Source: a virus. From it: 64,000 nucleotides of DNA. Made by a program: the position numbers and the translations under genes. Below the pieces are notes generated by a model that did not search any database, was not told the origin of the DNA, and saw nothing but the letters and a program-made list of their open reading frames with translations. Positions 5,488 to 63,995 of the stretch are shown here, piece by piece. Each line of letters starts with the position of its first letter. Position 1 is the stretch's first letter. The stretch lies in the IMG/VR virus record IMGVR_UViG_3300045988_177309, positions 96,170 to 160,169 of that record; one strand, given 5' to 3'.

Positions 5488-5541
5488 AAGAACTTGATGT
5501 GCGATTTTTCCTCTCCCTCCTTTATAACATTTTATATATAT

Positions 5542-5570
5542 ATTATACTATATTTTTAAATAAAAATCAA
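5542..5570 (-). promoter_or_regulatory. sigma-70/SigA-type promoter, TTGATT-17-TATAAT (conserved phage motif copy)
   Basis: The minus strand reads TTGATTTTTATTTAAAAATATAGTATAATATATATATA. It lies immediately downstream of a terminator hairpin. Confidence 0.55.
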
Positions 5571-5597
5571 CCCGAAGTGCTAGACACTTCGGGTTTA
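5571..5597 (-). terminator. rho-independent terminator hairpin (cccgaagtgctagacacttcggg) + T-tract
   Basis: Perfect 9-bp stem just downstream of the 5605-6591 stop, followed on the minus strand by a T-rich tract. Confidence 0.6.
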
Positions 5598-5604
5598 AAA
5601 TTAT

Positions 5605-6591
5605 TTATTTGTTAAGAGCTTTTATATCATGGACTATAAGATCAATAATTGCAGCCTGCTCAGCAGTGCAATCACCAACCTTTTTACCTTTGCCCAAATG
5701 CTTATCAACAATCTGAGTAATCTTTATGGCATTACCCTGATCCTTCTGCATTAAAATACCAACCAGTTCTTGGAACTCTTTCATCAGAGCTTCAAAATCA
5801 TAAGTCTCTTCCTGACTTACTACCTGAGTCTTTTCATCAGTAACAAGAGTACCATTTGAAACCGCAGCTTCCTTATCTATAGCTTCCGCAATTGCATTTA
5901 CCAAATTATCATAAGAAAACTCAATAAAATCAGGAGTAAAGCGGAAGCGACTACCCGCAACAAAGCGAGGAGTACCGCGCATAAACAAAATGGTCTTATT
6001 ACCATCATCAGTATCAATAGAGCGAGAATAACCTATTATATCACAAGTTCTTTCACAAACAAGGCGAGCACGCTTGTCAAGAGTAGGCACTATCTTAGAT
6101 ACCTCTTGACCTTTTTCATTAGTAAAAGTCTTTTCAGTTGAATGACTAATAAGGACAAGACCATAATTCAACTGAAGAATTTTGCGGATACATGTATCAA
6201 ACTCATCCTGTGCCATACTGAACCCTTTGCCGTACGGAATCTCGGCGATGTTCTCATATGTGTTCTTTTGGTCGCTCTCACGACTGCAAATATACTTCTC
6301 GCAGTAGCTATAAGCAATATCCGTGGTATCAAGAATTACGGTCTCGAACATGGACTGTACGTCCGGATCCCTCAACTCTGTGAGTGCTTTCTTGAAGTCA
6401 CCCCAGCTATTTATAGGCTGAGCCATGACCCCGGGAAGTGCATTATATCCTTTTTCAAAGGCTAGGAGCAATGCCCGCGGGAACTTAGTTGCAATAGTTG
6501 TTTTACCACTTTTTGGCTCCCCATAAAAGAACACAGAATATCCCTTCAGATTTCGACTAACCTGATGCGGCTTAATATCTTTCAGTCCCAT
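5605..6591 (-). CDS. RecA-superfamily / AAA ATPase (Sak4-like recombination ATPase?)
   Basis: Walker A motif GEPKSGKTT. About 330 aa. Lies next to the helicase. Confidence 0.6.
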   Translation of the reverse strand: MGLKDIKPHQVSRNLKGYSVFFYGEPKSGKTTIATKFPRALLLAFEKGYNALPGVMAQPINSWGDFKKALTELRDPDVQSMFETVILDTTDIAYSYCEKYICSRESDQKNTYENIAEIPYGKGFSMAQDEFDTCIRKILQLNYGLVLISHSTEKTFTNEKGQEVSKIVPTLDKRARLVCERTCDIIGYSRSIDTDDGNKTILFMRGTPRFVAGSRFRFTPDFIEFSYDNLVNAIAEAIDKEAAVSNGTLVTDEKTQVVSQEETYDFEALMKEFQELVGILMQKDQGNAIKITQIVDKHLGKGKKVGDCTAEQAAIIDLIVHDIKALNK

Positions 6592-6609
6592 AATTATTTT
6601 ATCCCCTTA

Positions 6610-7536
6610 TTAAAAATTAAATCCACCATTATTGGTTGCAGGAGCCTTATTGGTATTCTGTTGTGCCTTCCACTCGTCACTACGACGCTTCATAGTCGCA
6701 AGATCGGTTTCACGCTGAGCCAAGAACTCCTTAATCTCAGCAACAGTAACAGTTTCTTCACTATCCCAATCATAAGGCTGAGGATTAGCACGAGTTATTT
6801 CAAAACCCTTACGAGAAGACCTTACTTCACGTACGCTATCTTCGCCAAAAGCACTTTGCTCAACAATGGTGCGCACTATAACTTCCGAAACCTGTTTACC
6901 CTCTACAAGAGTAAATATAGGAAGTTCAAGCCCTTCAAAATAAGTTATACCATCAGGATGTTTACAAGTAAACTCAACAGGCATAATAGAATTTTTAAAG
7001 TTAAATATATAACCCTTTACGAGACAATGTTCAGATATCTGACGCTCCTCATCAGGATCAACATGAGTGACATTAGTAATTATCATATCCTCCCTAAAGG
7101 TTGCACGTTTTTCCTCATTATCATTCAGAAAATCTGCATTATGAACAAAACCGCCTTCATTGCGCTTTACACTAACAAGCTCTTCCTTACCATTTCTATC
7201 AGTATAAAATTCATTAAGTGCAATGGCAGAATCCACACTCAACTTTCCAGCGCCATCCTTACCATCCTGCATATAAGTGCCAATCTTACCATCCAAAATA
7301 TTCTTCAACATATTATAGGTGGCATTAGACTTACCAGTAGAAGTAGTTGGAGTTACAAAAGTAAAATGAATCTGAACTATATTAGTCATTGCATCATTTG
7401 TAGCTATATCTATTGTACCGGAAATAAATTCCGTACCATAATTTTTAGATTCCTTATTGGCGACAGTCTTGAGTGCAAGATCATGCTGATAAAGGTAGCC
7501 CTCAATATGCGATATATTAGTCATTTTCTTAGCCAT
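6610..7536 (-). CDS. hypothetical protein (possible ssDNA-binding protein; acidic/aromatic C-terminus ...GGFNF)
   Basis: Long ORF with good coding character. The functional call is weak. Confidence 0.55.
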   Translation of the reverse strand: MAKKMTNISHIEGYLYQHDLALKTVANKESKNYGTEFISGTIDIATNDAMTNIVQIHFTFVTPTTSTGKSNATYNMLKNILDGKIGTYMQDGKDGAGKLSVDSAIALNEFYTDRNGKEELVSVKRNEGGFVHNADFLNDNEEKRATFREDMIITNVTHVDPDEERQISEHCLVKGYIFNFKNSIMPVEFTCKHPDGITYFEGLELPIFTLVEGKQVSEVIVRTIVEQSAFGEDSVREVRSSRKGFEITRANPQPYDWDSEETVTVAEIKEFLAQRETDLATMKRRSDEWKAQQNTNKAPATNNGGFNF

Positions 7537-7546
7537 AATTTAATTT

Positions 7547-62254: not shown

Positions 62255-62307
62255 TTATAAACCTCCTTTAATTTCTATATATATTATATAATAATTTATA
62301 TAAAAAA

Positions 62308-63105
62308 TCAATCAGTAGTCATTAAGAGCGACTTAATTGTGCGTTTTTCTTCCTTTTGCCGACGATATTCTTCAATTGTAGCTTGCCATTTGAGTGCAGT
62401 ATCACAAAGATGGCATGAATTGCGCGTTTCACAAGTTTGATTACAATTAAGGCGAGTTGGCATTATTTCTTTAGCTATAAACTGATTATTAGTATTATAA
62501 TCTAATTGCGGAATTAGGACGTTTATATTGCCGCGCCACTCTTTACGCTTATATATTTTATATACAGTTTCTTCTATTTCAGCATTAGGCGACGCAAATT
62601 CAAAACATGAGACATACGGTTCATAGAATTCAGTATCCTCTGGTCTAATCCATGTGCCGTGAGCAAAGTCTGCGCGCGCCACATTGCCGGTTGCTGCGCG
62701 ATTAGGGATTGCGCGCACTTTAAAATTAGGATAACGCTCCTTTATTCTATCCTGTTGGAAGAAAAGGGGCGCACCAATAAAGCCTTCGTTTACACCAAGG
62801 GATACGGCAGAATTAAGATCTTGCCAAGTATTTAAATAAAAAGAAAAGAAATACTCAAAATCTTTAAATTCTTCTAAAACATCTCCAGCAGCCAAACATA
62901 ATACAAGGCGGCCGGGGTGTTTTTCATTAAGAGTTTGGAGTATATTCCATTTTATATCTAGATCATCTATGTCCACAATTATTCTTGCGGTCGGATATTC
63001 CTCCATTAAATCAATTGCTTGTCTATAGTCGCGTGCGGCCACACGTATTTCATCGGCTTCTGTAAGTAATTCTTTCTTTTGGCGAGATTTAAGACAATAA
63101 CGCAT
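62308..63105 (-). CDS. hypothetical protein (265 aa), GC-richer
   Basis: Track ORF. The overlapping minus ORF 63006-63293 is probably spurious. Confidence 0.65.
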   Translation of the reverse strand: MRYCLKSRQKKELLTEADEIRVAARDYRQAIDLMEEYPTARIIVDIDDLDIKWNILQTLNEKHPGRLVLCLAAGDVLEEFKDFEYFFSFYLNTWQDLNSAVSLGVNEGFIGAPLFFQQDRIKERYPNFKVRAIPNRAATGNVARADFAHGTWIRPEDTEFYEPYVSCFEFASPNAEIEETVYKIYKRKEWRGNINVLIPQLDYNTNNQFIAKEIMPTRLNCNQTCETRNSCHLCDTALKWQATIEEYRRQKEEKRTIKSLLMTTD

Positions 63106-63269
63106 ATATTACTTCCTTTCTTATGTCTATATATAAATATTATAGCATAAAAAAGTAGCAATTGCAAGTAAAAATTTCTCAAAAGCTTTTTAATTTCAGG
63201 CTTGCGGTTTATGCCAGCGTCTGCGGCCGGAGCAACTTTTGAGAGCGCAGTTTTTAAAATAAAAAGAAA

Positions 63270-63287
63270 AGAGGGCGTTAGCCCTCT
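63270..63287 (-). terminator. terminator hairpin (agagggc-gtta-gccctct) + T-tract
   Basis: Immediately downstream of the 63290 stop. Followed on the minus strand by TTTCTTTTTATTTT. Confidence 0.6.
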
Positions 63288-63289
63288 TT

Positions 63290-63682
63290 TCACTTCACTA
63301 TCTTGTATACCGCCATCTTGCGAGCACGACCACCCTCATCCTTTTCAGCTTTACCAAGGTTGACCAGTGCGCTCAGACGATAAATAACCTTAGAACGAGT
63401 TATGTCCTCATTCTCACCCAGCGCATCCATTATCTCGTCTATGGACATAAATGCATCATTCTCCATCAGCACATTCTCAACGGCATCACGCAGATCATCG
63501 CCCTGGGCCTTCTTCCTTTCGGCAGTTTCCTTGGCCTTCTGAGCCTTGCGGTCGAGCAGCTCTATCTCACCCTCACAGAAGTCTATGAACTTCTGAACAT
63601 CAGCGCCCTCTATATGATTAAAGAGGTCTATCATCTGGGTGTAAACTTCCTTCTTGGTTTCCTTAGCAACAGTGTTCTTCAT
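63290..63682 (-). CDS. hypothetical protein (130 aa)
   Basis: Track ORF. Promoter motif upstream at about 63705-63755. Confidence 0.6.
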   Translation of the reverse strand: MKNTVAKETKKEVYTQMIDLFNHIEGADVQKFIDFCEGEIELLDRKAQKAKETAERKKAQGDDLRDAVENVLMENDAFMSIDEIMDALGENEDITRSKVIYRLSALVNLGKAEKDEGGRARKMAVYKIVK

Positions 63683-63758
63683 AATTATTTTTTCCTTTCT
63701 TGTTTCCTTTATTTTATATATATATAATACTATTTTTTTTATTTAAAATCAAAAATTT

Positions 63759-63995
63759 TTAAAAAGGAATAATGTTACAGGTAAGATTTTCGCTTATTTC
63801 TTCTTCAGAAAGATCTTCTTGGATATCGTTTCTGCTCCTTTTAATACAATCGGAAAGATAAGAGGTAGTGCTATTGTGGGTCATCTTTTCAAGAATTTCG
63901 TCATTATAAGGCATATAAAACTGATAGTCTTTTGCAATTTTCTCATACCCTATAATTTCTTTAAGCTCTGCTGCACAATCTTCACAAAAAGCCAT
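63759..63995 (-). CDS. hypothetical protein (78 aa)
   Basis: Track ORF. ATG at 63995. CxxC at the N-terminus. Confidence 0.5.
   Translation of the reverse strand: MAFCEDCAAELKEIIGYEKIAKDYQFYMPYNDEILEKMTHNSTTSYLSDCIKRSRNDIQEDLSEEEISENLTCNIIPF

Follow-up and report, generated by a model that had tools for sequence, protein, structure and literature searches.

What is the string that recurs ahead of minus-strand genes in a 64,000-nt stretch of IMG/VR record IMGVR_UViG_3300045988_177309 (the window), and which polymerase would read it? The window covers 40% of the 162.5-kb genome of a large uncultivated gut phage of lytic type, which is TAG-recoded and carries an SPbeta-like replication module. 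The nearest cultured relatives are all Firmicutes phages, and the host probably belongs to the Firmicutes as well. The original prediction had described about 25 copies of a SigA promoter, often fused to a hairpin, and had assigned nearly every gene boundary its own terminator and promoter.

The repetition itself was confirmed. Scanning the window with a 44-nt PWM derived from the motif copies (minus-strand consensus tTTGATTTTTtwtAAAAAATATArTATAATATATATAgAAAAT), we detected 23 sites, of which 18 score above 30 bits and 5 score 19–27 bits; 30 Markov shuffles reached at most 13.4 bits (Table 1). These 23 copies, close to the number predicted, include all 19 of the positions listed at the outset. 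Every copy lies on the coding strand, and plus-strand PWM hits are only weak self-complementary shadows of minus-strand copies; the motif is thus not shared equally between the strands, an outcome that would have spoken against the prediction. With up to 3 mismatches allowed, the plus-strand string TATATATATTATAYTATATTTTT matched 17 times, on the plus strand only; from shuffles 0.03 matches would be expected, and none gave more than 1. The claim for almost every gene boundary was overstated, since the motif occupies only ~23 of ~91 feature boundaries in the window (about 25%), and the PWM scan returned no copies between 8 and 30 kb.

Table 1. Motif copies in the window. Site, first T of the minus-strand TATAAT; dG in kcal/mol.
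Type	Coordinates	Strand	Site	Bits	Hairpin (dG)	Elements and context
Cassette	5529..5595	-	5547	51.7	5569-5595 (-17.9)	-35 TTGATT; TATAAT 5547-5542; predicted start ~5535; upstream of YorH-like/DnaB/primase genes
Promoter, no compact hairpin	7928..7971	-	7946	42.5		TGA of TTGATT is stop codon of ORF 7966-8784; predicted to drive wHTH, YorF-like, AAA_24 genes
Cassette	30685..30752	-	30703	49.2	30722-30752 (-17.8)	-35 TTTATT
Cassette	33381..33448	-	33399	50.0	33418-33448 (-18.3)	-35 TTTATT; upstream of small ORF and MVP-like gene
Cassette	34848..34914	-	34866	45.8	34885-34914 (-16.4)	-35 TTTATT
Cassette	37980..38050	-	37998	37.5	38017-38050 (-16.9)	T-rich -35; upstream of exonuclease and RNA ligase genes
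Cassette	41552..41617	-	41570	40.8	41591-41617 (-14.3)	Hairpin after tRNA-Sup; T-rich -35; TGnTATAAT
Promoter	43324..43367	-	43342	50.2		TGA of -35 is stop codon of ORF 43362-43913; upstream of DUF2828/DUF7788 gene
Intermediate	44267..44310	-	44285	22.4		TTGACT-17-TGnTATAAT; upstream of TAG-containing methyltransferase-like ORF
Promoter	44597..44640	-	44615	45.9		Upstream of ORF 44312-44578
Hairpin then promoter	44798..44886	-	44816	42.2	44842-44886, core 44850-44876 (-12.9)	Predicted to drive tRNA-Pro, which follows
Promoter	45123..45166	-	45141	43.9		Upstream of tRNA-Leu
Promoter	45974..46017	-	45992	52.3		Upstream of tRNA-Ile/Gln/Thr cluster
Cassette	46646..46711	-	46664	39.5	46683-46711 (-12.9)	-35 TTTATT
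Intermediate	48259..48302	-	48277	27.0		Upstream of ORF 47246-48151
Intermediate	52980..53054	-	52998	20.5	53023-53054 (-16.7)	Hairpin abuts -35
Intermediate	53966..54009	-	53984	22.1		TTGACA-17-TAATAT
Intermediate	55405..55448	-	55423	20.8		TGA of -35 is stop codon of ORF 55443-55688; upstream of tRNA-Ser
Promoter	59220..59263	-	59238	46.8		TGA of -35 is stop codon of ORF 59258-59566
Promoter	60743..60786	-	60761	48.9		Second of tandem pair; long structured-looking leader follows
Promoter	60873..60948	-	60891	48.6	60915-60948, weaker, AT-rich (-10.0)	
Promoter	62270..62313	-	62288	43.2		TGA of -35 is stop codon of ORF 62308-63105; upstream of M28 peptidase-like gene
Promoter	63711..63754	-	63729	40.1		-10 TATTAT; upstream of ORF 63290-63682

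Judged by its sequence, the motif is a sigma-A/sigma-70-type promoter, with a -35 element TTGATT (ranging in nature from TTGACA to TTTATT), a 17-bp spacer and a -10 element TATAAT. The A-tract in the spacer, the (TA)n discriminator and the short, purine-rich leader with its Shine-Dalgarno sequence are conserved as well. With only the -10 side used as the anchor, the spacer measures 17 bp at 219 of 229 upstream TTGA hexamers, 16 bp at 3 and 18 bp at 2. The hexamers alone carry little weight, because matches to a generic sigma-70 consensus show no enrichment in this AT-rich DNA (113 against 98 expected; 91 against 82). In most copies, the predicted start is separated by 16–54 nt from a start codon led by a Shine-Dalgarno sequence, or by 28–41 nt from a tRNA (median ~28 nt). 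Stand-alone TTGACA-17-TATAAT promoters, as announced, are present upstream of gyrB (within the 18683-18973 intergenic region), tRNA-Sup (41813-41785; 12/12, with TG) and glyA/SHMT (39329-39301; 11/12), and the window holds a second, more canonical class, TTGACw-17-TGnTATAAT. Strong Shine-Dalgarno sites and Firmicutes-phage relatives make a sigma-A host a fitting one. The SigA reading was partly supported: its hexamers, rigid 17-bp spacer, strand and position were upheld, but its wording missed that this is a phage genome; 'phage promoter class most likely borrowing host sigma-A' is the better description.

We consider it likely that the copies are compact transcription punctuation units, each a host sigma-A promoter of an early class and often fused to a terminator. 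Such a unit would act as a strong housekeeping-sigma promoter whose alternating-TA discriminator should melt easily, with initiation predicted at an A ~7 nt past TATAAT, within ATA[G/T/C]AAAAT. The transcript would begin with a purine-rich leader of ~25–30 nt bearing a strong Shine-Dalgarno sequence, or run directly into a tRNA gene. The host RNA polymerase holoenzyme presumably reads the sites without phage proteins, and the motif sites would therefore constitute an early class. The downstream genes could be translated before the phage amber suppressor takes effect, because they are largely free of recoded TAG.

At the other end of these units, an intrinsic-terminator hairpin abuts the promoter in 9–10 window copies (roughly 40%). 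The five fusions first pointed out, at 30727, 33423, 34889, 38022 and 41592, were borne out (dG -14 to -18 kcal/mol), and further hairpins are listed in Table 1. The putative terminator would end the upstream gene, and the U-tract of a hairpin placed directly against the promoter (CTTTATTTTT or TTTTTGATTTTT) would double as the -35 region. The overlap that the original prediction described is present in a subset of sites: across the clade, 153 of 351 sites are fused to a terminator hairpin, against 43 in shuffled controls, and the -35 G-to-T change occurs in 46 of 153 fused copies against 8 of 198 others. Such dual use plausibly explains why the family has a T-rich -35 (TTGATT/TTTATT rather than TTGACA). 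Hairpin stems vary in sequence between copies while their pairing is kept, and the hairpin of copy 60873..60948 likewise has another sequence in one relative and still pairs.

An exact search with a 23-mer of the motif retrieved over 118 stretches of IMG/VR. Most of them belong to contigs of 125–200 kb whose products include homologues of window proteins (40–96% identity), and related gut phage contigs gave 345 PWM hits in 1.03 Mb. Conservation spans -37 to ~+16 (329 independent sites in other genomes), and the motif is kept upstream of MVP-like orthologues at 55–64% identity despite differing flanks. The motif is conserved, presumably under selection, across a large clade of such gut phage contigs. 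These changing surroundings could also suggest an element that serves primarily recombination or mobility, a gene-shuffling linker or MITE-like sequence with a secondary promoter look; a recombination role is described for PeSLs in T4-like phages (PMC2839356). Similarity breakpoints fall near the motif in 80 of 436 cases, against 24 if uniform, and intergenic ones in 64 of 261, against 40 expected; the MVP-like gene has different neighbours in different relatives, and the motif marks the junction; of ~5 indels relative to a close relative, one has its end at the hairpin of copy 33399. The breakpoint enrichment is, however, modest and confounded, since alignments run on as far as the edge of any conserved motif, and most indels against close relatives are not at cassette borders. 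With strict orientation, a fixed distance to start codons, neither terminal inverted repeats nor target duplications, and stems that are not homogenised among copies, we regard this explanation as highly improbable; a recombination role would in any case add to promoter function and not replace it.

The genes after the motif are small ORFans, auxiliary genes, tRNAs and SPbeta-like replication genes, and no virion or packaging families were found among the large ORFs of motif-bearing loci. In-frame TAG occurs in 5.0% of first ORFs after the motif versus 17.2% of other ORFs (Fisher 1e-5), and by rank after the promoter the share of ORFs with TAG is 7.2, 14.2, 16.8 and 24.0%; the ratio of TAG density between first and other ORFs is 0.33 (locus-bootstrap 95% interval 0.16–0.58). 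This promoter-proximal depletion would fit early, standard-code expression. Counting against the early reading, some TAG-containing genes sit inside motif-driven units, and replication genes and tRNAs are middle-class in the Bacillus phage SPO1. They are likewise middle genes in T4 (PMC2988021), which favours a middle-type promoter, in which host sigma-A at the -10 would be joined by a phage co-factor (an activator/sigma appropriator like T4 MotA/AsiA, or a phage sigma-A-like factor) recognising the conserved TTGATTTTT...AAAAAATATA block, or a phage repressor would bind the same block for early shut-off. Conservation of the spacer, discriminator, +1 to +8 and the invariant 17-bp spacing does exceed what sigma-A contacts need, and therefore a phage-encoded factor could also bind; moreover, the more canonical class coexists in the window, and the first gene that copy 7946 precedes encodes a winged-helix regulator. 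We nevertheless find a middle-type promoter unlikely. The -35-like TTGA stays at the canonical 17 bp and is not swapped for a box at -30, the copies that open the unidirectional block, ahead of small ORFans, belong to the motif class, and the TAG depletion fits expression before phage products build up. No candidate activator or sigma factor was found among the scanned ORFs, and T4 early promoters have extra consensus regions too, with no factor needed (PMC2988021).

Host sigma-A as the reader of these sites also has to be weighed against a phage-encoded RNA polymerase (YonO-like, single- or multi-subunit), with the sigma-A resemblance a coincidence of AT-rich DNA. Uniform multi-copy promoters of ~40 nt are typical of phage polymerases, and the motif is highly uniform, multi-copy and ~40 nt long. 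SPbeta encodes YonO, and since the replication module is SPbeta-like, such an enzyme is plausible elsewhere in the genome (PMC5467207). No RNA polymerase or sigma domain was detected in ~53 window ORFs, nor a polymerase domain in the flanks, in a search whose readable sequence (~76 kb of 162.5 kb) is less than half of the genome. The bipartite -35/-10 structure with TATAAT at an exact 17-bp spacing argues against such a polymerase, as do the TTGACA-to-TTTATT variants, which are the tolerance expected of sigma region 4. The target of YonO is a single operon of late structural genes (PMC5467207); the motif, by contrast, precedes replication, tRNA and auxiliary genes, and a dedicated phage polymerase seems to us very doubtful.

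The cassette is a well-known kind of phage device, not a new one. Among known systems it comes closest to the PeSL (promoter-early stem-loop) cassettes described from T4-like phages (Arbiol et al. 2010, PMC2839356; Comeau et al. 2014, PMC4122927). Both are multi-copy intergenic sigma-70-type promoters with a terminator stem-loop, have subclasses with the stem-loop overlapping the -35 or lying before it, finish with a Shine-Dalgarno sequence and start codon, and cluster before ORFans and auxiliary genes, at junctions of variable gene content. PeSLs, however, belong to T4-like myoviruses, whereas the present phage has an SPbeta-like replication module, Firmicutes-infecting relatives and TAG recoding. 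Its promoter consensus (TTGATT, A-tract spacer, (TA)n discriminator) differs, its hairpin is an A-tract/stem/U-tract terminator instead of a GGGG...CCCC stem, its motif also precedes core replication genes, and its recombination signal is a modest breakpoint enrichment. The host-takeover module of SPO1 is reportedly built of many short operons, each said to be equipped with a terminator, a strong ribosome-binding site and a strong sigma-A promoter of its own, as proposed for the present phage, but is reportedly confined to the terminal redundancy and is not known to show a 44-nt uniform consensus or a U-tract/-35 overlap. The early ('uber') promoters of T4, which the unmodified host sigma-70 holoenzyme reads, likewise occur dozens of times, combine near-perfect host recognition elements with extra conserved positions outside them, and presumably win against host promoters as soon as infection begins (Hinton 2010, PMC2988021). 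The present copies differ in mostly lacking TGn and a clear UP-element consensus and in conserving the spacer and initial transcribed region.

The phage also resembles the 'Agate'-type gut phages (Borges et al., bioRxiv 10.1101/2021.08.26.457843) in its genome size (near 154 ± 27 kb) and in the Firmicutes host predicted for it. A stop codon recoded with the help of a suppressor tRNA is common to both, as are early genes that carry insertions of recoded homing endonucleases. Borges et al. propose standard-code translation of early genes, and promoters are not mentioned in their paper. To their picture of alternatively coded phages, our analysis adds a putative class of promoters and the association of these promoters with TAG-free genes.

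The plus-strand string named in the original prediction occurs 17 times in the window, on a single strand only, against 0.03 matches expected. Alignment of the minus-strand copies gave the consensus tTTGATTTTTtwtAAAAAATATArTATAATATATATAgAAAAT (44 nt, about 40 bits), and a PWM scan built on it detected 18 copies above 30 bits and five more at 19–27 bits, whereas shuffled sequence never scored above 13.4 bits. Every position listed in the prediction was recovered. All 23 copies lie on the coding strand, as opposed to the equal occurrence on both strands that would have counted against a promoter. 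Their distribution is uneven. Two copies, at 5.5 and 7.9 kb, precede core replication genes, the PWM scan detected none from 8 to 30 kb, and the other 21 are dense in the interval 30–64 kb, which is rich in ORFans and auxiliary genes. Outside the window, close to where the unidirectional gene block begins, small ORFans are preceded by three more strong copies; a 29-bit copy lies ahead of the DNA polymerase gene. The claim of a terminator and promoter at almost every gene boundary proved too strong, the motif being present at about a quarter of the feature boundaries.

The repeats belong to an uncultivated phage with a TAG-recoded genome of about 162 kb, whose host is probably a member of the Firmicutes. 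Exact protein matches link the window to two ENA metagenome contigs of 162,465 and 162,542 bp, and it corresponds approximately to positions 4110–68109 of the longer one, reversed. The full 162.5-kb genome is represented in ENA by ERZ28661244 ZEEV15-1 scaffold_29 or ERZ27260911 k119_163740. G+C content is 31%, and the minus strand holds essentially all genes, including nine tRNA genes, one of them a CUA-anticodon amber suppressor. Coverage by long ORFs rises from 0.79 to 0.87 with TAG read-through, several ORFs contain 3–7 in-frame TAGs, and the ENA gene calls on the matching contigs have the read-through lengths; TAG thus appears to be read as sense. Pfam and PHROG scans detected genes for a RecJ/DHH exonuclease, a primase, DnaB, an AAA_24 ATPase, a winged-helix regulator, an NAD-dependent ligase, GyrA, a GyrB split by a GIY-YIG gene, three radical-SAM cassettes, a major-vault-protein (MVP)-like protein, an SPFH protein, an RNA ligase, an exonuclease, SHMT, metallophosphatases and a DUF2828/DUF7788 protein. 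The flanks on the ENA contigs encode YorF-like and YorH-like proteins, the DNA polymerase III alpha subunit and NrdD, which indicates an SPbeta-like replication module. The nearest cultured phages all infect Firmicutes, with DnaB identities of 37–41% (best match 41%). No close relative was found among deposited phage genomes, and Megablast against phage records matched tRNA only. In size, host prediction and recoding, the phage is like the 'Agate' group of Borges et al. (bioRxiv 10.1101/2021.08.26.457843), a resemblance only.

The motif has the anatomy of a putative sigma-A/sigma-70 promoter: a -35 and a -10 element separated by 17 ± 1 bp, placed upstream of co-oriented genes at leader distance. 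The exact TATAAT is present in 21 of the 23 window copies. The family consensus of the -35 element, TTGATT, matches TTGACA at four of six positions, with conservation of 1.00, 0.98, 0.87 and 0.97 for T1, T2, G3 and A4 over 345 sites and variants ranging from TTGACA to TTTATT. When the window and related sequences were anchored on the -10 side only (TATAATATAT), a TTGA hexamer was located at 17 bp in 219 cases, at 16 bp in three and at 18 bp in two. The predicted transcription start would be an A about 7 nt after TATAAT, and in most copies a start codon with a strong Shine-Dalgarno sequence follows at 16–54 nt, or a tRNA gene at 28–41 nt. Over 329 sites in other genomes, positions -37 to about +16 are conserved and purines make up 74% of the leader. 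In five hairpin-less copies, the TGA within TTGATT is the stop codon of the upstream ORF, and the same holds for the TGA in the TTGACA of the stand-alone tRNA-Sup promoter, so these units are tightly packed. A scan with the generic sigma-70 consensus was not enriched over shuffles (113 versus 98 and 91 versus 82); the hexamers alone are uninformative in such AT-rich DNA, and the signal resides only in the extended motif.

Nine or ten window copies carry a compact, G+C-rich hairpin of -10 to -18 kcal/mol, preceded by an A-tract and abutting or overlapping the -35 element. With a G+C-rich stem-loop followed by a U-tract and located 3' of a stop codon, these structures are predicted intrinsic terminators. 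The stem cores vary among copies (GCGGGAG, GGCCGAG, GTGGGAAT, GGTTGCAT) while the flanks are conserved, and in a qualitative rather than formal covariation comparison, the orthologous hairpins of relatives L165 and L119 differ in sequence with pairing kept. Across the clade, a hairpin was detected at 153 of 351 motif sites, compared with 43 after shuffling. The proposal that the U-tract doubles as the -35 element was borne out by this overlap and by the concentration of the G-to-T variant TTTATT in fused sites (46 of 153, against 8 of 198 unfused), which points to a single dual-use sequence. Such dual use is a plausible reason for the T-rich -35 of the family.

The best-supported interpretation of these sequences is a class of phage promoters that the host sigma-A holoenzyme reads and that are often joined to the terminator of the gene before them, an arrangement that would produce transcription units that are short, insulated and strongly translated. 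Its main competitor holds that the extra conserved positions are additionally recognised by a phage factor, as in a middle-type class or a shut-off operator. The wide conservation and the rigid spacer leave room for such a factor, although T4 early promoters, too, have a consensus outside the sigma-70 elements (PMC2988021). In T4 middle promoters, a MotA box centred at -30 takes the place of the -35 element (PMC2988021); no such replacement is seen here, since the TTGA hexamer stands at the canonical 17 bp from the -10, which argues against a MotA/AsiA type. It is unlikely that the motif is the promoter of a phage RNA polymerase (T7-like, N4-like or YonO-like), because it is bipartite, with -35 and -10 hexamers, and no polymerase domain was found in the approximately 76 kb searched of the 162.5-kb genome. 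SPbeta-like phages do encode YonO, but YonO transcribes late genes (PMC5467207).

The motif extends well beyond this phage. The exact 23-nt core was found in more than 118 IMG/VR stretches, most of them, among the matches listed, from contigs of 125–200 kb; these contigs often contribute several stretches each, and many encode homologues of window proteins at 40–96% identity. The IMG/VR stretches contain at least 345 PWM hits of 25 bits or more in 1.03 Mb, and in stretches with a clearly dominant coding strand, that strand has 108 hits and the other 15. The core also occurs several times per contig in 120–200-kb 'MAG' contigs of human and animal gut origin that were binned as Clostridia, Bacilli or Mollicutes; one of these, from 'Clostridium sp. 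SUG910', shares about 92% identity with the window. The MVP-like protein is encoded in many relatives at 55–96% identity, always with a motif copy ahead of the gene. Upstream of orthologues with 55–64% protein identity, the motif is almost unchanged while neighbouring genes and flanking intergenic sequence differ, indicating strong purifying selection across a wide clade and ruling out recent local duplication as the origin of the repeat. Large ORFs of motif-bearing loci encode adenylosuccinate synthetase, NAPRTase, RNA ligase, AAA ATPase, flotillin-like or unknown proteins; no virion, packaging or RNA polymerase genes were recognised among them, several having no family match. A literature search for the motif string did not find a phage paper describing it, and Borges et al. 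(bioRxiv 10.1101/2021.08.26.457843), who defined recoded gut phage clades, do not discuss promoters.

A primarily recombinational role of the repeat is weakly supported. Similarity breakpoints fall near the motif in 80 of 436 cases against 24 expected, and in 64 of 261 against 40 when only intergenic breakpoints are considered. This enrichment is modest and confounded, as alignments are prolonged to the edge of the motif by its own conservation. Of about five indels relative to the closest IMG/VR relative, only one or so adjoins a cassette.

In-frame TAG is depleted behind the motif. It occurs in 5.0% of first ORFs and in 17.2% of other same-strand ORFs (Fisher 1e-5), and the proportion of ORFs with TAG, ordered by rank after the promoter, is 7.2, 14.2, 16.8 and 24.0%, compared with 21.7% for ORFs without an upstream motif. 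TAG density in first ORFs relative to the rest is 0.33 (locus bootstrap 95% interval 0.16–0.58), these statistics being based on heuristic ORF calling in related, and thus not independent, genomes. Some TAG-containing genes lie in motif-driven units. Early genes of recoded phages have been proposed to use the standard code of the host in translation (Borges et al., bioRxiv 10.1101/2021.08.26.457843); the depletion fits this proposal and, with it, an early role for the motif.

Promoters of the form TTGACw-TGnTATAAT were considered as a separate class driving the suppressor tRNA and TAG-containing genes, which was suggestive within the window; 7 of 15 first ORFs behind such promoters contain TAG. 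This reading was dropped because the suppressor tRNAs of relatives have motif-type promoters or none, and the sample is too small. The element TGGACAAAA, with only three exact coding-strand intergenic copies, each directly upstream of a TAG-containing ORF, could be part of a second promoter class.

Several other features of the window were recorded (see the table below). Rfam at the gathering threshold detected tRNAs only. In the sub-threshold twister match, the conserved core nucleotides align and one optional stem is absent. Each radical-SAM cassette comprises three genes. One encodes a protein of about 200 aa whose N-terminus has a conserved 'RLExLRxAHY' and whose C-terminus is rich in Ser, Thr and Asn; the others encode a radical-SAM enzyme (about 440 aa) and a second, radical-SAM-like protein (about 470 aa). 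The three cassettes are paralogous and could represent a RiPP-like modification system. The PIN+PhoH-like gene seems to be split. The interruption of gyrB looks like an intron with a homing endonuclease, and Rfam gave no match to it even at E<=1. The leader behind promoter copy 60761 (named for the first T of its TATAAT) has no Rfam match either, and a relative 92% identical in sequence carries a 137-nt insertion within it (L165 4379–4516). The CxxC-repeat proteins are probably endonuclease-like, and the replacement of one of their genes in the close relative IMGVR_UViG_3300045988_175607 suggests that it is mobile. The SPFH gene and an 87-aa ORF are missing from this relative but present in the SUG910 relative; along the shared 14 kb, protein identity varies from about 63% to 96%, indicating a mosaic history.

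Coordinates of features in the window and associated observations
Feature	Position	Strand	Observation
CxxC-repeat + DUF2726 gene, first paralogue	9754–10515		5 in-frame TAGs
TGGACAAAA, first copy	10602–10610	minus	
Interrupted gyrB, whole	15555–18682		
GyrB C-terminus	15555–15902		
GIY-YIG endonuclease ORF	15871–16743		Inside gyrB
Stretch within gyrB	16744–16939		G+C-rich, structured-looking
GyrB N-terminus	16940–18682		580 aa
PhoH C-terminus	20292–20732		About 5 kb downstream of the N-terminal part, first radical-SAM cassette in between
Radical-SAM cassette, first	20789–25460		
TGGACAAAA, second copy	25487–25495	minus	
PIN + PhoH N-terminus	25720–26619		7 in-frame TAGs
MVP-like gene	30755–33199		814 aa; matches shoulder and repeat domains of eukaryotic major vault protein
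SPFH gene	33450–34338		Also in SUG910 relative; absent from IMGVR_UViG_3300045988_175607
87-aa ORF	35080–35321		Also in SUG910 relative; absent from IMGVR_UViG_3300045988_175607
CxxC-repeat + DUF2726 gene, second paralogue	40151–41029		5 in-frame TAGs; unrelated sequence in its place in IMGVR_UViG_3300045988_175607
TGGACAAAA, third copy	41087–41095	minus	
Amber suppressor tRNA	41669–41743		
Radical-SAM cassette, second	48375–51796		
Radical-SAM cassette, third	55609–58840		
Type-P1 twister ribozyme match, sub-threshold	59789–59844	minus	Between tRNA-Lys and tRNA-Met; 38.9 bits (gathering score 67.2), E ~3e-7 (small search)
Leader after promoter copy 60761	about 60560–60740	minus	About 200–340 nt; G+C-rich, structured-looking, no obvious ORF

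The closest described system is that of the PeSL cassettes of T4-like phages, in which a terminator stem-loop is combined with a strong, sigma-70-like early promoter and the composite is repeated in intergenic regions, with enrichment before ORFans (PMC2839356); in some subclasses, the stem overlaps or precedes the -35 element (PMC2839356). The cassettes described here likewise combine a sigma-70-like promoter with a stem-loop, recur in intergenic regions and end in a Shine-Dalgarno sequence and ATG. However, PeSLs belong to T4-like myoviruses of Gram-negative hosts, whereas this phage has an SPbeta-like replication module and its nearest cultured relatives infect Firmicutes, and the consensus is not the same. 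Because lineage, host phylum and consensus differ, we regard the cassettes as an analogue that, judged by this likeness, would work as PeSLs do, and not as a member of that family. The finding is genuine, its support is good, and it reveals no new mechanism; the promoter-proximal depletion of TAG might be the sole part that a specialist finds unexpected.

A broader and distinctly tentative reading, which we consider less likely than not, is that in a gut phage clade with TAG recoding the cassette marks an early regulon that uses the standard code, with the promoter programme and an amber-suppressor 'code switch' forming two coupled layers of temporal control. The extra conservation (spacer, discriminator, +1 to +8 and the invariant 17 bp) would then stem from a phage factor switching the class off or on, and the cassettes could also serve as PeSL-like gene-shuffling linkers in Firmicutes phages.

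For a large clade of uncultivated 125–200-kb phages from human and animal guts, the motif provides a marker of one transcription class that can be read from sequence alone, and with it the operons, terminators and short leaders of these phages can be annotated better. The cassette itself may be a compact and probably strong promoter/terminator part for low-GC Gram-positive hosts. The depletion of TAG near the promoter is the first link of a promoter class to TAG content, and by allowing promoter class to be compared with TAG content genome-wide, the motif makes the hypothesis that recoding delays late-gene translation testable in this clade.
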